A DNA stretch of 64,000 bases from Mobula hypostoma (taxonomy: Eukaryota), in contig NC_086097.1 in assembly GCF_963921235.1 (NCBI RefSeq), positions 110,920,001 to 110,984,000 on the forward strand, given 5' to 3'. The position numbers and the translations under genes were made by a program. Every line of letters begins with the position of its first letter. The first letter of the stretch is position 1. The notes under the pieces were generated by a model. It had not been told where the DNA came from. It worked only from the letters and a program-made list of their open reading frames with translations, and ran no database searches. Shown here one piece after another: positions 12,634 through 50,522 of this stretch.

Positions 12634-12853
12634 CCACAAAATGCTGGTGGAAGGCAGCAGGCCAGGCAGCATCTATTGGAAGAGGTACAGTTGACGTTTC
12701 AGGCCGAGACCTTTCGTCAGTCCTGACGAAGGGTCTCGGTCTGAAACGTTGACTGTACCTCTTCCAATAGATGCTGCCTGGCCTGCTGCATTCTACCAGC
12801 ATTTTGTGTGTGTTGCTTGAATTTCCAGCATCTGCAGAATTCCTCATGTTTGC
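12634..12853. mobile_element. Mini Penelope-like element: two inverted pLTR segments, 14-bp TSD
   Basis: 86-bp inverted arms 12635-12720 / 12723-12808; flanking direct repeat ATTCTTTCTAATAT at 12620-12633 and 12854-12867; same sequence as PLE termini at 14400-14499 and 48798-48895. Confidence 0.85.
12718..12755 (+). ncRNA. Minimal type I hammerhead ribozyme motif (PLE-type)
   Basis: CAGTC-CTGACGA-AGGGTCTCGGTCT-GAAA-CG-TT^GACTG: stem I CAGTC/GACTG, core CUGANGA and GAAA, palindromic ACGU stem III. Confidence 0.7.
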
Positions 12854-23300: not shown

Positions 23301-25938
23301 TAAGTTGGAATGAATGGCTGTTGCTCTGGTTGGCAACCAGTGGTAAGCTGGGGTCAGTGCTAGGCCTGCAACTGCTCGTAAATGCATTAATGATTTGGAA
23401 AATGGGTCTGACTGCAGCATTTTCAAGTTTACAGCTTGGTTGAGTGGGGCTGAGGCACTTAATTTCATGCTGTATAAATCCATGACTTTATGATTTGTAT
23501 ATGCCATATAGTGCCATCACAATATGGGTACACCAATGTTTTTTGTCCCTTGCTGTTTCTTAACTCAATCCATACTGATACTTGTAGTAACTTTCAGAGC
23601 TATGAGTTTATCCCTTTCCGCTGTCTAATATCAAGGCTATCCTGCCTCTTTTTCCATTATGTTCACATCTTCTAAATTAAAATAACCTGGAAGACAAATT
23701 CATAGAACTGTACTGTTCAGAAATCCATCAGCCCACCTTTGCTGACGGTTTTGCCCATACACAATCACACCATTTGCCCACGCAAAGGCCATTCCTTTCT
23801 ATACCTTGCCTATTTATGTGCCTGTCCCAATGTCTCTTAAATGTAGTGACTGTATCTGACTCCACTGGCTCCAATCAATCACTTTGTATAAATCAATACT
23901 TACCCTCTAGATCCCCTTAAAAACACATTCCTCTTACCTTAACTTTGTTATTTTTTTATACTTCAATGTTGGGGGAAAACATGGTGATTATCCACCCTCT
24001 CTTTTATAATTACATAAGTTACCCCTCAGCCTTCTTTGCCCCAGGGAAAACAGTGGGCACATCTAAACCCTCCCCATAACTAGTGTCCTCCATTCTGGCA
24101 ACATCCCAGTTAAATACCAACCTTCATTGCTTTGCAACCACATCTCTTCAATAGCAGTTAGGTGGGACCCATGCGTTCATTTGTGCCATTAGATCTTTTA
24201 CCTTGATGCAAGTGCTAAATACAATTACTAAAGAGTTTTCAAGTCTATGGTATTTCCAGTTGTGATGTACAGCTGTGAGAACTGGACTATTAGTAAGGCT
24301 GAATACAAAAGAATCGACACCTTTGAACTTGGATGCTGGAGTAAAGTGTTAAGAGTTCGTTCAACAGCAAGAAGATCCAACAAGTCAATACTTGAAAAAA
24401 TACAGCTAGTCTGCTCACAAGGAAGCTTCATTATCAGGCAAAAGCTCAAATATTTTGGCCGGAGGGGGGGGCGCTGTGGAGCCATGAGCAAGTAGGATGC
24501 AGCCCCCTGTAGCTCCGGCAGATTTGATATTAAAACTTCATTTACACAAAGTTAATTTGAGGTTTCAGGTGGCAAATGAAGGGGAGGTGCTCCTCAATAC
24601 ATACCAGAAGGAGAAAGAGTGAAGGAGTGCGCTACAAAATGCCAAGAAGAGGAACGGCTAAGGCAGAGACAAACGAAGAAATAGGCCCAATTGACGCCTC
24701 GGAGCTGACGTGTGAGGGCCACGTGGAGCCACGTGCACAGAGTATGGACAACAATGCGGTATTGGTGGCCATAGAGTCGCTACATGCAGAGCTAACTACA
24801 ATGAAGTCAGACATCTGTAAGAAAATTGAAGAAAAAGTTGCAGAGGTAGTGGTCGCTTTGAGTGTAAAATTGCTTCGTTGAAAGCAGAAAATGACACTGC
24901 GATTACCGCACAGAAAGCCCAGTTGAATACACAAGATCAAACTATGAAAGAGATAGCAGAGTCAGCTAACGGAGCTTCAGACATAGTTGTGGAGCTGGAA
25001 AGCAAGGTGAAACGACTTGGTGGGCAAGCTGAACAACTTTCTGAAAAGTGCCTGGATTTAGAGGGACGTTTGAAAGGACAGAATCTGAGAATTGCAGGCC
25101 TACGAGAGGGGAAGGAAAATGGGCAGGAAACAAGAGATTTCATAGCACAGATGCCAAAAGATGCTCTAAAGCTGGAAGAAGCTCTGGTGATAGACTGAGT
25201 ACATAGAGCACTCCGGAAGTGCCCGGGGGACGACAAGCCGCCGTGACACCTGATTGTGAGGATCCATTATTGACATGTACTTGAAGATATAATGCAGAAG
25301 GCGATATGTACCAAGAATCTACAATATCAAGGACAAAGGATTCAGATCTTCAGAGACCTTCCATCCACAGTGGCCAAAGGACGTGCGGCTTTCACACTGG
25401 TCAGGAGGTTGCTGCAGGACAGACCTCCCGGAGTCAAGTTTGGCCTCCTCTATCCTGCGAAGCTACGAGTGACTATTAATGGCACCGAGGCAGTGTTTAC
25501 AGATCCAGAAGCTCGCCAGTATGCCGAATCTCATTTGGGAAATGCTGAGAAGTGACTGTGCACAGTGAGAAGAAACCCCTTACAGAATGAAGATGCCCCA
25601 AGTAAAACTCCGTGGTAGGAAATTATGAACGTTTCGAATATTAATGAGGCACTGCCTCTAATCCCTGTAGAAAACAGGACTCTGAGTTATATTTGGATTG
25701 TGCCATGTCGGATTAAGGCCCTATGTGGGCAGATAGTAGTAAGAGTTGGTCTAAACTGGTGTTGTATGTAGAGTATGTTGTTAATGGTGCTAGAGTAAGT
25801 TATAGCTTTGAGAATCACACTTACTTTAACCTCCCAATAATCTCTGTTTGCTAGTTTTTCTCAGTTTTTTCACTCCAATGCCAGATTTGGCTTTGTGACC
25901 ATCTATATAACTGGGAAGCTACTGAATTGGTTTACAAG

Positions 25939-26095
25939 CAACACACATCAAAGTTGCTGGTGAACGCAGCAGGCCAGACAGCATCTCTAGGAAGAGGTAC
26001 AGTCGACGTTTCAGGCCAAGACCCTTCGTCAGGACTAACTGAAGGAAGAGTTAGTAAGAGATTTGAAAGTTGGAGGGGGAGGGGGGAGATCCAAA
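25939..26095 (-). mobile_element. Penelope-like pLTR fragment nested in the L1
   Basis: Same sequence as PLE terminus at 48798-48960. Confidence 0.8.
26000..26037 (-). ncRNA. Minimal type I hammerhead ribozyme motif with intact core
   Basis: Minus strand TAGTC-CTGACGA-AGGGTCTTGGCCT-GAAA-CG-TC^GACTG; GUC cleavage triplet, stems I and II pair. Confidence 0.75.
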
Positions 26096-27557
26096 CATAT
26101 TCCTCAAAGTTTCCAATGAAATCTAGGGGTGTGGCAATAATAATTCACAGAAACGTTCCATTTCATCACCTAACAACAATAGCAGACAAGGATGGGAGAT
26201 ATGTTACAGTTACTGGTTTATGTTATGGTTATGGTTATTGGAATGGGAGACAAATTTATAACTTGGATTAAGCTACTGTACAGTAACCCTAGTGCTAAAA
26301 TACTAACTAATCAGACCCTCTCGGAACCACTCAGTTTGCACAGGGGCACAAGACAGGGCTGTGCATTAAGTCCCTTATTGTTTGCGTTGGCCCTGGAACC
26401 ACTGGCGGAGACTATACGTTCTCACTCCAGAATTTACGGGTACAATACAGAATATACTATCAACAAAATTTCCCTTTATGTGGACGAAACCATATATTAC
26501 TATTCCAGTTTTGCTGGAAATAGTCAATTTATTTGGCACTTTCTCAGGGTATAAGATTAATTGGGGGAAAAGTGAATTGTTCCCAGTCCGAGTAGAACAA
26601 CAGGAGGGGCTTAAACAATTTCCATTCAAAATAACCCTTGTGAAGTTTACTTACCTTGGAATTGTAATAACCAAAAAGTATAGTTCTCTACCTGAAGCAA
26701 ATTTTATCCCTCTAATTGAAAAGATAAGAAAGAAAATAGAATTTTGGAAGACACTCCCAATTTCTTTAGTGGGTAGAGAAAATGCAGTCAAGATGATCTT
26801 TCTTCGCCAACTGCTCTATCTATTTCAGAACCTGCCCCTCTATCTTATCAAAACCTTTTTTAAAGGATTAGATTTGATAACTCTACCTTTTATATGGAAT
26901 TATAAAGCCCATCAAATTAGGAAAGAACATCTCTGCAAGAATAAGACGAGCAGGGGGCTGGCACTACCCAACTTTATTTTTTATTACTGGGCTGCGAACG
27001 TTAGCCATATAGCACACTGGATAGATGATACAGTTGTACTTCCCAGATGGTTGGAGATGGAGCGTGAGGATTGCCTGCCATATTCCATAGGGGCAATCAT
27101 CATGTCCCCTATTTGGTTAAATAAAGCCTGTTATAGAGGCAATCCCATTATCTACAGCACCATACAGATGTGGAAACAAAAGGGGAAGCATTTGAAACTC
27201 AGAACATTATCTTTTCTTGTACCTATATCAGCGAACCTCCCTTTTATCCCCTCATGTATAGATGGAGCCTTTGATGCATGGCGAGAATTAGGGATACGCA
27301 GCATTGGAGACTTATACATACAAGGGATTTTTGCGTCATTTCGGCAGCTCCAGCACAAATTTGGATTGCAAAAGAGTCACTTTTTCAGCTATCTCCAGCT
27401 AAGACACTATATAAGATCACATCTTTCTGGTTTTGAGACGGCAGAACCTGATTAATTAGATAATCATTTAAGATCATGTTTAGGGACAGAACACATCATC
27501 GCCTATCTGTATGATGCCATACTAAAGAAGTGTCATACAACAATGGATAATATTGAA

Positions 27558-27876
27558 GTGTGGGCACGTGGCCAAGTGGTTAAGGCATTGGACAAGCGAC
27601 CTGAAGGTCGTGAGTTCAAGCCCCAGCCGAGGCAACGTGTGTTGTGTTCTTGAGCAAGGCACTTAATCACACATTGCTCTGCGACAACACTGGTGCCAAG
27701 CTGTATGGGTCCTAATGCCCTTCCCTTGGACAACATTGGTGTCGTGGAAAGGGGAGACTTGTAGCATGGGCAACTGCTTGTCTTCCATACAACCTTGCCC
27801 AGGCCTGCGCCCTGGAGAGTGAAGACTTTCCAGGCGCAGATCCATGGTCTCGCAAGACTAACGGATGCCTTTACTT
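27558..27876 (+). mobile_element. tRNA-derived SINE nested in L1 ORF2
   Basis: A-box TGGCCAAGTGG, B-box GTTCAAGCCC, CORE-like ttgagcaaggcacttaatc, flanking taatatt repeats. Confidence 0.85.
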
Positions 27877-29699
27877 TAATATTAAAAAAGAGTGGGAAAA
27901 GGAGTTGGGTACAGAGACAGAGGAGGTTATATGGAATGAGGCTTTGGAGTAGGTTAACTCCTGTTCCATCAATGCCAGGCACTGTTTATTACAATTTAAA
28001 ATCTTACATAGACCACATTACTCAAAAGTAAGGATTCATAAAATATTCCCAGAGGTGTCCCCAATGTGCGAGAAATGCAAGTCCTCAGAGGCAAATTTGT
28101 TACATAGTTATGCTTTATGTCCTAGGATACAAGAGTACTGGAAGCAAATATTTGAGGTCTTATTGAAGGTACTAAAGGTTCAGATAATAAAGAACCCCAT
28201 TTTAATAATTATTGGAACTTCTGCGAGGTCAGATAAATTCCAGGCCACCCAGCAACAACTCCTGACCTATGGCATACTTAATGGAAAGAAACTCGTACTG
28301 ATTTTCTGGAAAAAGGAGGAAACTCTATCACTCAGACAATGGCTGGCTGCATTAATGGATACTCTGCATCTAGAGAAGATAAGATACGTTATCAAGGACA
28401 GACTCAAGGAATTTGAAAAAATCTGGCAACCATTTCTGTTGTATCTAAACGAGACCGACAGCTGAACTAAGTGTGGGGGGGGGGGCGGTAGGATCTAAAC
28501 AGCACATACGGGAGGGGTGAGGGGAGGGGAGGGCTGGGAAGGGGAAAGGAGATGGGGTGGTAGGGTTTCCTTTGTTTTTTGCTTGTTTACTATACATACA
28601 TTCATATTACTTTCATTATGTTGTTATAAGAAAGAAAAGAAGCATTGTACTTTAGGACATTGTCAGTTGTGGTTAAGCTGATGTTGCTTCACAATAAAAA
28701 CATTTGAAAATAATCAAATATTTTGGCCACATCATGAGAAGAGAGGATTCCTTGGAGAAGACTCTCATGTTAGGTAAAACAGAAGGTAAAAGAAGGAGAG
28801 GACAATAGAGGCTACGATGGATAGATAATGCTACTCAGACAATGCGTATGACCTTGGGGAATCACAGAGAGGCAGTTTCCAACAAGAAGCCTTGGTGTAC
28901 AGGAGTCTATGAGGCCACGAAGGGTCAGACTTGATTTAATAAATGAACAAAGAGTCTTCAACGTTGTCTTTTTTTGTGAAAGATTTTCTCTTTTTTGACT
29001 CTGAACTTTTTTTTAAATGTTCATGTACTGTCCCTTCCTCATTACAGTCTGGTTATCAATACTCATTTTGCTACCTGTCATCTGTCAAAAGCTTATCTTT
29101 TCTTTTTAATTTTTTAAACTCTCTTCATCAAAACCTTCCCACTAACTATTTTGGTGGAAGTTGTAACTGCAGCCCAATTAACGATTTTCTAATCCCAGCC
29201 AGATTCATGATTTTAGGAGCAGCTCCTTCCTTCACCAGTACTGGTGTCAGTGCCCTTGAATTGTTACTATTTTCCCCACCAGGATCTTTGGACCATGCAA
29301 TGATCAAACCTGCTGGAGAACTCACTGAAAAGCAGCATCTGTAGGGGAAAGGAATAGCCTATACTTGGGTTGAAAACCTGCATTAGAAACATGCATACAA
29401 TTCTACCACCTTATTTAGTTTATGTACAGTCCATGGCTTGCAGAGATTCCAAATTTTGTTGTTCTATTTTTTAATCTGGACTTGCTGCAGATAAATTGTT
29501 TAATTACTCAACAGTTCAGGAATCTCATCCTGAAAAGAGCTGAAATATTTGGTCTCAATGTTTACTGCCCAACAATTCTTAGCTAATTCATTTGGGAAAG
29601 CACATCTTGCTCAGTGAAGGTTGGCACTTATAAGATACAATTTTGGGAAGGTGCTCAGATTTATTTCAAAATTGTTGCTGATTTAATTAAACATGAAAG

Positions 29700-37933: not shown

Positions 37934-38000
37934 AGTGTTGGAAGAGTGAGTGATCTGGCAAATTCATTCTAAATATTCATGTTACAAAGTACACACTTAC

Positions 38001-41000
38001 TTGGAGGTTTTTTCAGCTTCGTCATTTATTTCCTTTCTAATTATTTCTATTTCAGCTTCATGTTCTTTCCGCAAGACACGTAGATCTTTCTGTAGTCTAG
38101 TGTGTTCTTTACGCAACTTCTGTTTTTCATTTTCTGCCTCTTCCAGTTTGCGACCCATTTCAGTTTGCTGTGCTCGCAAGTCATCCAACACCTTAAGTAG
38201 CTCCAAGTCAGATTTTGACTTCTCTTCAGAACCTTCCTCAAAGATCTTAAGCAGAGAATTTTTTTCCTGCAACTGCTCTTGCAGAGTCTTTATCTCTTTT
38301 CTATAGCCCTCAATTAAAGAAGTTCCCTCTAATCTTGCCTTATCCCCATTGTCCTCCTTTAAGGTGAGACCATCTTCCAATTCTATCATATGTTTTTCAG
38401 TAACTTCCTTCCCCGTTTCTAACTCTGCAATTCTCTTTTCCATCTCAATTATCTGTTTATCTTTTATGCTCAACTGTAGCATTAAATTATTTAATTTATC
38501 AGTTTTCTCTTGTTGTTTCTCAGACAATGAGTCATACATATGTTTCTGCTGTTCAATTTCTGGCTGAAGCTGTTCTGTTTTCATCCCCCCCTCCACTTCA
38601 ACAATTTCTAAATGCTCTTGAATATTCACATGAGACTTAGTGACTTCTTCAGAGTCATCAGTTTTAACACTGACTTCTTCATATTTTTGCATCATCTCAT
38701 TACGTGCTGATAACTCTGTCTGCAGAGCCGTTATTTTTTCCTCATAGCTTGCTCTCAATACTTTCAGAGAGTTCTCCTTCTCAAGTTGCATTTCTTTTTT
38801 CACTTCATCAACCAACTTTTGCTTTCCTTCTTTTTCTGAAACTACTGTAGCTTCTAAAGTTTTCACTTTTTCTTCCAAGACCCCATTTGTTGCATCTTGC
38901 ATCTCTGCTTTTTGTTTCAAGTCTCTTAACTGTTCATCCATGCATTTTTCTTTCTCTTCCATTTGGTTTATTAACTGTTTCCTGATTTTTGCAATTTTCT
39001 GCTCTGCCTTTTTCTTAAATTCAGCTATTTTGGCAGCACTCTCTGTTTTCAGCTTAGTTTCTAAATCCCTCAATTCCTCATCCTTCTTATTTTTAAGATC
39101 CAATTTGGATTGCTCCCATTCAGTCTGTTTTCCTGAAAACTCAACCCTCAGTGACTGTATCTCTTTCTCAAATCTTTCATTTTTTTCTTTAGCATCCTTG
39201 AACTTGACACACTGTTCAGAAGCTCCAGCCTGAGCCTGCTCCAGCTGTTGCCTCATCTCCTGCAATTCCATTTCCTTCTGTTGCAATTGCTTGGTGACTT
39301 CTGCGATTTCAGATTGCTGAGACTTCATAGCAATATCTTCTTCCATTTCGATTATTCTAGATTTAGTTACTTGCAACTGAGCCTTCAGATCATCAACTAA
39401 TTTCTCTTTTTCATTTTCTGCATGTTCCATTTCAATATTAAGATTTTCTAAATTGTTAGACAGTTTCTCTATCTCTGCTGTCAATGATAACAATTTACCA
39501 TCCTTCTCTTCATTCTCTTTAACAGACATCTCAAATTTTAACTCAAGCTCTTTCATTTTGTTGTTATGCTGTGCAAATTTAGATTCTGTCTTTTTCTTCC
39601 ATTCTGTTAACTTGTTCTTATATTGATCTACCTGGCCAAGAGCTGATATTTTTTCTTGAGAAATAGCTTCAACTCTTTCAGACAGTTGACTTATTTGATC
39701 CAGCAGCTTCTGCTGTTCCACTTCATGTTGTTTGTTAAGCAAGGACAGAGCTTCTTCTTTATTTGCAAGACAAACACTATGCTCAAGCTGCAACTTTAAA
39801 TTCTGTACATCTTTCTCTAAACTTAAGATGATTGATTCTTTTTTCTTCAGCTGTTCAGTGATCGATATACAAGTATTTGCATTTTCTGCCAGTTCTGTTT
39901 TATAGTGCTCAATTATTGCCTCCTTCTCTTCTAAAACCTGATTACTGAACTTGCTATCTTGTTGGAGTGTGTCACACTCTGCATTGATGCTTTGCAATTC
40001 AGACTGCAACTCCTGAAAGTTTTGCTCTTTATTTTGCAGTTGTTGTGTGATATGCTGCACTGAATTATTTAATAAGACATTTTGATTTACTAACTCTTGA
40101 ATACGGGTTTCTAAATCATCATTTTGGCAGATCTTTCTCTCAAGTGCCTTCTTTACCTTCTCAATTTGATTTTGGTAAACTGTAATCCGCTCATTTAAGT
40201 TGCTGATCTTATCAAAACAGAACAAAGAGAACTTATCGGTTTGTAGGTCTATTTTCCCACCTGTTTCATTGAAACAGTTTATTAATTGCTTGATTTGGTT
40301 CCCAAATTCATTCTGAAGTTCAACAGAATTTTCTTGAAGTGCTTTTTCATGTTCCTTACAACGCAGGTTTTCTAACAGCTGCAGTTTATCCTCTGCTTCT
40401 TTCAACAAGCAGTTTTGCTCATGAATCTTCCTCTGGCTTTGTTCATGTGTTTTTTTAAGCTCACTTAATGCATTTTCTAGCTCCGTTCTTTCCCGTAAAT
40501 TCTGGCTGGTATTCTCTTCAAGGGTCTCTAATTTAGTTTTAAGGATTATTTCACTTTCTATCAAAGCAGAGACCTGAGAAGATGCTTCTTTAAGCTCCCC
40601 TTGGAGCTGTTGCATTTTATTTCCTGTTGAAGCAATCTCTTCTGTAAGCTCTTCTACTTTCCTGGATAGTTTATCCTTATCATCATTGGAGGCTTTTAGA
40701 CAAAGTTTCATTTCTGTAAATTCTTGCTCCTTTTCCTGAAGCTCAACCTCATGCTTTTCTTTTAGTTCTTCCATATGCCGATCCAGTCTATTCACCCAAC
40801 TCTCATTCAGCTCTGCAACCTCTTTTTTGTGAATTTCATTTAGACTCTCCAGTTGTTGTTTCTGACTGGATTCCAGCTGGGCCACAGTTTCACTGATTCC
40901 TGTGGAACTTGATTGTGCCATTTCCACCATCTTTGCATTGAACATCTGTTCCTTTTCAATCAATTCTTCCTGCTTCTCCTTTAGCTCTGCTTTCAGTTTT

Positions 41001-42223
41001 ATTTCCAGTTCAGAAAGTTGCAACTTGAACTTTTCTTGCATTCCTTTTCTACTTTCCTTCATTTTTCCCAATTTTGTTTCAAGTGTTCTAATTTTTTCCC
41101 CGTATTCCTCATGAAGTAAAGCAACTTGGTGCTCATGCTGTTTATGTTCATCTGCCCGTTGCTGACTGACCTCTTCCGCTTGTTGTTTTTCATTACTGAG
41201 TGCCTGATTGAGTGCCCTTTGCTTTTCTTCTGAACTTTCCTGCATCTGTACAATGTCTAATCCCAGCTGAGTAATTCTACTTTCATATTGCTCGGTTAAG
41301 GAAGCTATTTTTTGTATCAATTCATGGTTCTTTTCTTCAAAGCTCCTGAATTCCTGTGCCTGCAATTTGTAGTTATCTAAATTAGCAGTAACCTCATTAA
41401 GTCTGATTTGATATGACAATTCTTTCTCTTCTAACTGTTTGTTAAGATTCAACTTCTCAGTCTCCATGTTCCTCAACAAGTTCTGTATCTCTGTTAATTG
41501 TGCTTCATACCGTTGACGCTGGTCACCTAGCTCACAAGTCATCCTTTCTTTTGCAGTTTCCTGCTCACACTTTTGGGCTTGACTGACAATTTCAAGTTCT
41601 CTTTGAATTTTTTCAAGCTCTGTTGTCAATTGTTCTTTGTCTGTTTGTAGCTCTTGTATATTTTTGTCTTTTTCCTCAAGAAGATGGTGGAGGCTGTTTA
41701 ATTTTTCTGTAAAATTTTTCTCAACTACACATATGGATTGTTCACCATCTTTTCTTGTAGCTTCAATCTTATCATTATAGTCTATTTCTTTTTGTTTTAG
41801 TTGCTTCTCCAAGTCTTCCTCAACTGAAGATAATTTATTTTCCAACTCCTGCCGTCCTTTAAGTATTTCTGTCATCTCAGTTGAGAGCATCTCCAATTCA
41901 GTTTGTTTCAAATCAAGTTTCTCCAGTGTCCTTTGGTTCATTTCCTCAATGTGTGCATGGAATTGGGTTTCCTTCTCCTTCAATTGTACTTCCAGTTCTC
42001 CACATTTTTCTTCGAGCTCCACCACTTTAGCCTGCTCCTGATGCAATTTTTCCAACCATATTTGTTCCTCTTCCTGACTTTTACTTTTCAGTGAAATCTG
42101 CTGTTTTTCCATTAAAGCTTCCATTTCTTCTTTGTACTTGGCCTTCTCTGCCTCAAGCTCTTCTGATTTCATTTCACTGTTTTGTGACTTTTGTACAAGT
42201 AAACTTTCCAATTCCAATATTCT
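38001..42223 (-). CDS. GOLGA4: GOLGA4 giant coiled-coil exon (4223 nt, phase 0/2), RILELES...AEKTS(K)
   Basis: Covers most of the 1429-aa ORF; polypyrimidine ...ccccctcccAG acceptor, GTAAGT donor; golgin-245 motifs FHAHIEEMNQRTLEKLDLKQTELE, FNAKMVEMAQ, ESAAKIAEFKKKAEQKIAKIRKQL, RLQKDLRVLRKEH. Confidence 0.95.
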
Positions 42224-42648
42224 CTGGGAGGGGGGAAAAAAAAGAAAAATCCTTTGAACTTCACATACCTGCTTGTGTTGTGCCAATAATTAATCAGTAA
42301 GTCATTAACAAATGTTTGGTCATTGAATGATGCAAAATTGATGCAAGTCAGCAGTCAACTAAACTGCACTTAAAAAAGTCTTTTTAAATAAACTTCAAAT
42401 TTCCAAATACTTCCAACTACTACTACTAATTTAAAATACACTTGATACTCAACAAAAAATAGATATCCAAAGATAATAATAACCCCGATTTTAAGTAGTA
42501 AAGGCCTTCACATCACATCAAGCTGCCCACAGAGATTCAATGGAGATCTGACAATAGGGAAGCTGTTCGAGTAAGCAGACTGAAGAATATCACAATTCAG
42601 GAAGTAAAATGTAAATATAAATTTCAACTATTTTAAAGGAATAAACAT

Positions 42649-48604: not shown

Positions 48605-48797
48605 ACTCCTTATATGTTAACCCTATAATTCCATGAATCATTCTTGTGAATCTCCTCTGGATCCTCTCCAATTCAAGCAAATTCTCTCTTAGATAAAGGG
48701 CTAACAACTTCTCACAATACTTCAAGTACAGTCTGAACCAATGCCTCAGCATACCGCCCTTGTTTTTATATAATAGTCCTCTCGAAATGAATGCTAG

Positions 48798-50522
48798 CAA
48801 CACACAGAAAATGCTGGAGGAACTCAGCAGGCCAGGCAGCATCTATGGAAAAAAGTACAGTCGACATTTTGGGCCAAGACCCTTCGACAGGACTGGAAAA
48901 AAAAGATGGGAGTAGATATAAAAGGTGGGGGAGGAGAGAAAGAAACACAAGGTAATAGGTGAAACCTGGAGTGGGAGGGATGAAGTAAAGAGCTGGGAAG
49001 TTGATTGGTGAAAGAGATACATGGCTGGAGAAGGGGGAGTCCGAAAGGACAGAACAGAAGGCCACGGAAGAAAGAAAAGGGGATGGGGAACGGTGAAGTA
49101 TGGAGGGTCCATCATCGGAAGTTTGAAAAATCAATGTTCATGCCATCAGGTTGCAGGTTACCCAGACAGAATATAAGGTGTTGTTTCTCCAACCTGAGCG
49201 TGGCCTCATCACAACAGTAGAGATAGTCAAGGACTGACATATCAGAATGGGAATGGGAAGTGGAATTAAAATGGGTGGCCACTGGGAGAGATTCTGCTTT
49301 TTCTGGTGGATGGAGCATAGGTGCTTGGCGAAATGATCTCCTATTCTACATCGGGTCTCATTGATAAACAGAAGGCCACACCAGGAGCACCAGATACAGT
49401 ACATGATCCCAGTATGCTCACAGGTGAACTGTTGTCTCACTTGGAAGGACTGTTTGGAGCCCTGAATGGTAGCGAGGGAGGTGGTGTAGGGGCAGATGTA
49501 GCACTTGCTCTGCTTGTAAGGATAAGTGCCAGGAGGGAGGTCAGTGGGAAGGGATGAATGGACAAGGGAGTCATGTGGAAAGCAGAAAGTGGGAGAGAGG
49601 GAAAGATGTGCATTGGGATTGCATTGGAAATGGCTGAAGTTCCAGAGAATTATTTGCTGGACATGGAGGCTGGTGGGGTGGTAGGTGAGGACAAGAAGAA
49701 CCCTATCCCAGGTAGGGTAGTGGGAGGATGGGGTGAGAGCAGACATGCATGAAATGGAAGAGATGCACTTGAGGGCAGTGTTGATGGTGGAGGAAGGGAA
49801 GTCCCTTTCTTTGAAAAAGCAGGACATATCCTTTGTTCTAGAATGAAAAGCCTCATCCTGAGAGCAGATGCAGCACCGACGCAGCAATTGAAAGAAGGGA
49901 GATGCATTTTTACAAGTAACAGGGTGGGAAGAGGTATAGTGCAGGTACCTGTGAGAGTCCATGAGTTTATAATAGACATCAGTAGATAAGCTATCTCCTG
50001 AGATACAGACAGTGAGATTAAGAAAGGGGAGGGAAAGCTGTCTGAAATGGACCATGTAAATATGAGGGCAGGGTGGAAGTTGGAGGCAAAGTTGATGAAG
50101 TTGACAAGTTCAGCATGGGTGCAGGAAACAGCACCAATGCAGTCGTCGATGTAGTGTATGAAAAGTGGGGAACGGACAGCAGTGTAGGCTTGGAACAGAC
50201 TGTTCCACGTAGCCGACAAAAAGGCAGGCATAGCTGGGACCCATGACTATACCTTTGGTTTGAAAGAAGTGGAAGGAGCCAAAGGAGAAATTATTAAGAA
50301 TGAGGGCAAGTTCCGCAAGATGGAGGAGAGTGGTGGTGGAGGGAACTGGTTGGGTCTGGTGTCCAGAAAGAAACAGAGAGTTTGTACATATGGACTGGAC
50401 ATCCAAAGTAAAAACAATGGAGATGATGGAACTTGAAAACATTGAAAAGATCCAGAGTGTGTGAAGTGTCACAGGGGTAGGTAGGAAGGGACAGAACTAG
50501 AGGGATAAGACAGAGTCAAGAT
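48798..50522 (-). mobile_element. Penelope-like element (RT plus GIY-YIG endonuclease remnants, 3' pLTR)
   Basis: LNNFSF..FFQTKG..MGPSYACLF, YIDDCIG, LPFLNL, YLHYTSSHP, GIMYCIWCSWCGLLFINETRCRIGDHFAKHL; pLTR hammerhead mutated (CTGTCGA..AAAA). Confidence 0.9.

Follow-up and report, generated by a model that had tools for sequence, protein, structure and literature searches.

The hammerhead motif at 26000-26037 is, very probably, a passenger: it is the 3' tip of an abundant Penelope-like element (PLE) lying in an intron of GOLGA4, where it is likely to do no meaningful cutting of the pre-mRNA. The window analyzed is a 64,000-nucleotide stretch of the Mobula hypostoma genome (NC_086097.1, 110,920,001 to 110,984,000), and positions are counted from its first letter. 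The copy is probably inactive because hammerheads of this family decay neutrally, sense copies have not been lost from the gene, possible partners are distant, the core is predicted to be buried, and the published relatives are weak. Cleavage of GOLGA4 pre-mRNA by this copy is unlikely.

On re-reading, the minus strand from 26037 to 26000 was identical to the letters reported in an earlier note on this DNA: UAGUC CUGACGA AGGGUCUUGGCCU GAAA CG UC GACUG. That note described a complete core, a GUC cleavage triplet, stems I and II, and a stem III reduced to the self-complementary ACGU. The core (CUGANGA...GAAA with an NUH triplet) was intact at every nucleotide by sequence and descriptor, GUC occupied 26007-26005 with the predicted cut between 26005 and 26004 of the minus strand, stem I had 5 bp, and ACGU was present at 26009-26006 as the palindromic stem III of PLE minimal type I hammerheads. 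The parts of the motif are as follows.

26000..26037, minus strand: minimal type I hammerhead motif (sequence, descriptor match and pair probabilities)
26037-26033 with 26004-26000, minus strand: stem I, 5 bp, one of them U·G
26032-26026, minus strand: core CUGACGA (sequence)
26025, minus strand: extra unpaired A between A9 and stem II (sequence and pair probabilities)
26024-26021 with 26016-26013, minus strand: stem II, with loop CUUG
26012-26009, minus strand: GAAA (sequence)
26009-26006, minus strand: palindrome ACGU (A15.1-C-G-U16.1), at the stem III positions

Stem II was present as reported, but not in the AGG/CCU register with its A-U pair, which had a pair probability of 0.02 compared to 0.88-0.97 for the register of the family (an extra A followed by GGGU-(CUUG)-GCCU, 4 bp). 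In the folding model, stem II most likely pairs in this family register, with the extra A and a G10.1·U11.1 wobble. The A at 26025 is the unpaired nucleotide between A9 and stem II that characterizes such motifs. Their closing pair G10.1-C11.1, highly conserved without being absolute, is replaced by G·U in the GOLGA4-intron motif. A closing-pair change of this kind would be expected to lower the cleavage rate.

A family-blind structural descriptor of the minimal type I hammerhead, a check of the kind proposed in the earlier note, matched the motif. Across 614 kb of genomic sequence it recovered 20 complete examples, all from one family, and it recovered none in any of 3 shuffles. The 34-nt motif pattern had 48,915 exact matches in the genome (one per 71 kb across 3.48 Gb), and its reversed control had 0. 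Within the window, the loose core pattern alone did not exceed the chance expectation (13 matches vs 8.1 +/- 3.0), an Rfam search of the window gave no gathering-level match, and the folding energy of the motif was unremarkable (z -1.38). Despite these weak signals, the descriptor result confirms that the hammerhead motif is real.

The copy had been described as the only fully pairable one sense to GOLGA4. This was correct for the window (2 descriptor matches, 1 of them sense) but not for the gene, in which the descriptor found 10 structurally complete sense copies and 3 antisense copies over the 256-kb coding span. The motif is thus not singular, being 1 of 10 intact sense copies in GOLGA4 and belonging to a family with tens of thousands of exact matches. 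When 1.01 Mb were searched with a profile, 127 copies that cover the hammerhead were identified, young and old together; the 600 kb taken at arbitrary places contributed 59. The GOLGA4 coding span held 41 such copies.

The G·U closing pair is a subfamily trait. It was found in 84 of the first 100 exact matches, and position 11.1 in 47 young copies was U in 30, C in 14 and G in 3, with C at 11.1 in 105 of 107 metagenome matches representing other families. CpG decay was considered as the source of U11.1 and rejected, since other CpG sites decay at approximately 10% and U stands at 64-84%. Neither the core nor stem I varied among the ray subfamilies, the differences falling in N7, loop II, position 11.1 and the flank. 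We also observed that the dominant young subfamily fixed U11.1, yet amplified most; this fits relaxed selection on ribozyme efficiency.

The earlier note had looked to a family consensus for conservation of the core and covariation of the stems. Across families, stem I covaried around the same core, but no compensatory stem I change was seen within the ray subfamilies, where stem I is invariant. A metagenome pattern with stem I left free gave 107 matches, of which 79, belonging to 6 sequence types, had three Watson-Crick pairs. The pattern fixed both the A+GGG register and the length of the spacer (7 nt), and so missed ray-type motifs and does not address the register. When all 21 metagenome types, which are non-independent, were considered, stem I was 0.63 paired compared to 0.36 when shuffled, and 0 of 2000 shuffles reached the observed value. 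Variants with U10.4-A11.4 (563 matches), which may be plain G-to-A changes, were left out of the covariation. Because other families show six fully paired versions of stem I, which is short and has 5 bp in the GOLGA4-intron copy, the architecture is under selection in the parent elements. In the metagenome contigs (L318-L419), which are presumably animal host DNA, there are several minimal-hammerhead families unrelated to one another that share the core but differ in stem I.

The host gene was identified by a protein search, in which a 1430-aa frame at 37997-42289 was 98% identical to golgin A4 of Mobula birostris. Generic coiled coils returned by the ESM Atlas for the giant exon were uninformative, and Pfam gave nothing informative on 8 ORFs of the window. 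Mapping of the golgin A4 protein on the genome placed the GOLGA4 coding span at 256 kb on the minus strand, with two exons flanking the motif.

38000..42223, minus strand: GOLGA4 giant coding exon, amino acids 634-2041 of P0001
17848..17973, minus strand: next GOLGA4 coding exon, amino acids 2042-2083 of P0001

The motif is sense to GOLGA4 and inside the 20-kb intron 17974-37999, approximately 12 kb after the giant exon and approximately 8 kb before the next. The protein match and mapping therefore agree with the placement first proposed, on the sense strand of the intron after the giant exon. In all four RNA-like runs, whose RNA nature is the tool's guess, a contig of 4.8-7.3 kb departed from the genome exactly at the exon end at 38000 and ran 723-1198 letters past it, as spliced GOLGA4 mRNA would behave. 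Family sequence was plentiful in the RNA-like runs, which are assembled contigs and in which cut ends are invisible. One further feature of the intron lies beside the motif.

26035..26056, minus strand: UACUAAC branch-point-like word followed by a pyrimidine tract and two AG, adjoining the hammerhead on its 5' side (sequence)

This stretch could serve as a cryptic splice acceptor on the sense strand, and its UACUAAC word is subfamily-specific. In the Penelope element of Drosophila virilis, an intron has its end at this same place, immediately 5' of stem I (PMC4209133). A joint from the giant exon to this acceptor (26035-26041) was absent among the 15 listed of 31 joints, which is no evidence either way.

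The proposed PLE origin of the hammerhead was borne out by the sequence in which it lies.

25935..26091, minus strand: 157-nt tip of a PLE pseudo-LTR (pLTR), 5'-truncated, ending 70 nt past the cut site in the first of two 3'-end clusters
25937..25958, minus strand: predicted hairpin at the element 3' end (fold and 3'-end cluster)
24529..28465, plus strand: decayed LINE hosting the insertion (related genome copies; no Pfam match)

The 157-nt insert was 96-97% identical over its whole length to the pLTR of long copies encoding a reverse transcriptase (RT) and a GIY-YIG endonuclease (L062-L064), and 92-97% identical to the corresponding region in copies arranged in tandem (L304, L306, L317); its best 40 genome matches were 96-100% identical. 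These results confirm the motif as the hammerhead of the pLTR in an endonuclease-bearing (EN+) PLE. In L062, an RT is followed by a C-terminal GIY-YIG domain in one ORF (RVT_1 at E 0.005, GIY-YIG at E 0.0004, neither match reaching its curated cut-off). The long copies examined were all broken. The protein motifs GVIY/YIGET and DKG were also found. Between RT and endonuclease, the linker CKRNKCYTC has the form CX2-5CxxC, which PMC8557442 defines for Neptune, shared with Nematis; on sequence, the linker points to one of these two groups. Tandem copies, in 3 of 15 loci displayed whole, ran from the endonuclease end to the pLTR with the hammerhead, the tail and the ORF start. They are rare (34 exact junction matches in the genome), and this arrangement, from which the pLTR is recognized, is accompanied by the inverted 5'-truncated arms and the 30-40 nt tail of EN+ PLEs.

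The 3' ends of 63 young copies in a 1.01-Mb sample fell mostly at +62..+74 (26 copies) or +92..+110 (31 copies) from the cut, the upper cluster being bounded by the reference sequence used. The clusters are approximately 35 nt apart, and the GOLGA4-intron copy ends at +70. PLEs carry a tail of 30-40 nt (PMC8557442), and two internal reverse-transcription start points define the tail of an anole element (PMC11167929); the two-cluster 3' ends match such a tail. By analogy, the hairpin at 25937..25958 is likely the counterpart of an AC-rich stem-loop at which reverse transcription of the anole element begins.

Between the equivalents of 25932 and 26091, 19 of 20 related LINE copies with both flanks had 409-440 bp, and approximately 425 bp of the host LINE is missing at the insertion. 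This LINE is presumably L1-like, judging from its motifs. The 5' junction has a 5-nt microhomology, CCAAA, at 26091-26095. No target-site duplication was found at the insert flanks, and a duplication was ruled out, as the insert replaces LINE sequence. The LINE sequence may have been lost with the insertion or after it. A contig with 427 other letters at the site (run-X10) was considered as an orthologous longer insert, and fits an uninterrupted paralogous copy of the LINE. Another copy of the same LINE family (L029, 1421-1500) has an independent PLE insertion approximately 47 nt from the position in the window, by chance or mild target preference. At 26216-26238, a second internal deletion in the host LINE joins endonuclease to RT, with a short (GGTTAT)n filler.

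Taken together, we infer that target-primed reverse transcription starting approximately 70 nt 3' of the cut site gave rise to the copy. The template RNA would have had an uncut hammerhead, because the copy spans the cut site, and the copy would have been shortened at or after insertion, along with the loss of LINE sequence. In the parent element, judging from published relatives, the motif may work as a dimer or with an element protein on tandem transcripts. A lone intronic motif would lack both the dimer partner and the protein.

Once inserted, the catalytic positions decay neutrally, at the rate of the flank. In the 47 young copies, the non-CpG substitutions came to 7/423 for the core, 19/656 for the stems and 46/2458 for the flank (Fisher p 0.30 when core and stems are pooled against the flank), and substitutions at CpG sites came to 13/141, 15/141 and 10/94, respectively. 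The core was intact in 34/47 young copies and 15/75 older copies. The GOLGA4-intron copy, which differs from the young subfamily majority at 2 positions, is intact because it is young. Within the GOLGA4 span, 10/12 young sense copies and 5/9 young antisense copies had an intact core. Sense copies were not depleted (22 compared to 19 antisense), in a test that covers one gene and is blind to mild bias.

These counts bear on co-option of the copy as a regulatory ribozyme tuning GOLGA4 output, for which CPEB3 and the conserved intronic hammerheads of amniotes are models. The sense strand, intact core and intronic position would suit such a role, as would the excess of intact sense over antisense copies in GOLGA4 (10 to 3), which is not significant. 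However, the copy is young and close to its subfamily majority, its intactness is normal at that age, its core positions belong to a family in which core decay equals the flank rate, it is without canonical stem III or loop contacts, and it has no partner within 50 kb. We regard co-option as extremely improbable. To reach another intact copy in sense orientation, one must go 50.8 kb downstream or 101.7 kb upstream; the window holds two other relatives.

12642..12819, no single strand: head-to-head inverted pair of tips of the same element; sense arm with intact core and broken stem I 5' strand
48790..50500, minus strand: older sense copy from a related subfamily; its hammerhead is mutated and its RT/endonuclease remnants are broken

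The sense arm of the inverted pair (at 12728, 13 kb further on) is a poor partner because the 5' strand of its stem I is broken.

Folding was predicted with a nearest-neighbor model, which ignores tertiary contacts, Mg2+ and protein, and in the monomer the core GACG paired with CGUC, the stretch containing the cleavage triplet (P 0.98-1.0). In an 81-nt context (20 nt more), stem I had a P of 0.02 or less and was lost to an upstream hairpin. The predicted fold would therefore bury the core. Among published relatives, minimal PLE hammerheads showed no cleavage as monomers and low cleavage as dimers (Cervera and De la Pena 2014, PMC4209133), and a review describes very low rates for such relatives even as dimers (PMC6765202). 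Cleavage by the hammerhead of the anole element PAc needs the element protein and is dispensable for insertion, and RNA-seq ends at its cut site were not found (PMC11167929).

The copy could instead cleave GOLGA4 transcripts during their synthesis, slowly, either in trans with another RNA that bears a hammerhead or helped by the element protein. This would be without consequence, because the flanking exons are 8 kb and 12 kb away from the cut and splicing would proceed. Intronic cuts can be tolerated through exon tethering. The intact core and stems are compatible with low-rate cutting, and trans partners may exist, as matching copies number in the tens of thousands and the RNA-like runs are rich in family sequence. 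Protein-assisted cleavage of the anole PLE hammerhead (PMC11167929) and the small surplus of copies that begin at the cut site also speak for it. However, a trans pair would have only the 5-bp stem I and the 4-nt palindrome, G10.1·U11.1 replaces the conserved G-C, the core is sequestered in the predicted fold, and the long element copies that could supply protein are, as far as examined, broken. We consider low-rate cutting improbable, and a passenger motif remains our preferred reading.

The copies themselves offer a fossil record of cleavage. No copy started exactly at the cut site among the 63 young copies of the 1.01-Mb sample (0/63), and one started at -2. Genome-wide, 552 starts were found at the cut site compared to 161 at +3 and 206 at -3. 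Among the first 40, 20 and 20 listed of these (cut, +3 and -3, respectively), inverted arms accounted for 31, 14 and 13, and small deletions for 3, 3 and 3; starts classed as clean by script numbered 6/40, 3/20 and 4/20, and 2 of the 6 at the cut site abut other parts of the element. Since 31 of the first 40 were inverted arms and 3 were small deletions, the pile-up at the cut site was rejected as fossil proof of cleavage. On manual reading, approximately two-thirds of the inverted arms at the cut site were joined through GAC microhomology. We estimate that clean cut-site starts are on the order of a hundred compared to at least 48,915 site-spanning copies, and a weak 2- to 3-fold excess at the cut site is possible. 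So few starts show that cut RNA was seldom inserted; the absence of cutting does not follow. Separately, 5' ends and inversion joints clustered at the 5' edge of the hammerhead and not at the cut (13/63 at -33 to -25), as seen in the 63-copy sample, in the pair at 12642-12819 of the window and in L001. The quasi-palindrome GTC-CT-GAC may anneal two opposite-strand cDNAs and so produce head-to-head pairs.

On a broader scale, tens of thousands of intact sense intronic hammerheads could clip host pre-mRNAs throughout the devil-ray genome whenever the element is expressed, in trans or with Penelope protein, GOLGA4 contributing at most 10 sites. The G·U of the dominant subfamily would then be a damping of cost. 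If true, host pre-mRNA cleavage would make retrotransposon load costly in a new way, and it would add a level to the RNA processing that takes place during transcription. We hold such clipping to be very improbable.

A minimal hammerhead in the pLTR of an EN+ PLE is an already described kind, and the GOLGA4-intron copy is an ordinary member that by itself adds nothing special. No paper on chondrichthyan PLE hammerheads as such was among the literature matches listed, and supplements may list shark or ray motifs. The minimal hammerheads of metazoan PLEs, as described in PMC4209133, resemble the ray motif in being type I with a 5-bp stem I, an unpaired nucleotide between A9 and 10.1 and a palindromic stem III, in their pLTR location, and in occurring mostly as scattered single truncated copies with some close inverted pairs. 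In contrast to that description, the dominant ray subfamily has G10.1·U11.1 in place of the highly conserved G-C, stem II has only 4 bp, and the ray has approximately 49,000 exact copies of one motif compared to approximately 4,000 minimal hammerheads in coelacanth and approximately 9,000 in Xenopus.

The green anole element PAc, which belongs to Poseidon (Frangieh et al. 2024, PMC11167929), likewise has its hammerhead at the pLTR-ORF junction, a tail defined by two reverse-transcription starts, and uncut RNA as the main template. The two elements differ in the CX2-5CxxC linker of Neptune and Nematis, present in the ray element and absent from Poseidon (PMC8557442), and in the first in-frame ATG, which in the broken ray copies seems to lie approximately 140 nt past the cut but is in stem II of PAc.

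Non-LTR retrozymes (Li et al. 2026, bioRxiv 10.64898/2026.07.22.740005) share the ribozyme type and PLE origin of the ray motif. They are tandem arrays, whereas the GOLGA4-intron copy is a lone monomer: active retrozymes have at least 2 consecutive tandem units with complete hammerheads, and the intron has a single 157-nt copy between LINE flanks. Elsewhere in the ray genome, L310 (1372-1765, minus strand; G000:C5:196.24 Mb) holds tandem 359-nt units with two intact hammerheads in cis, a retrozyme-like array whose units consist of a pLTR end and an ORF start and which would be the natural substrate for testing dimer cleavage; L315 has a similar spacing of 240 nt. The L310 unit is near the 363-bp mean reported for one chondrichthyan in the same preprint. 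Overall, the described class is extended to a devil-ray family that has an unusually high copy number and a weakened closing pair. With young copies in the tens of thousands, the family lends itself to tests of orientation and to end mapping, which makes it useful for learning if the hammerheads of PLEs cut in vivo at all.
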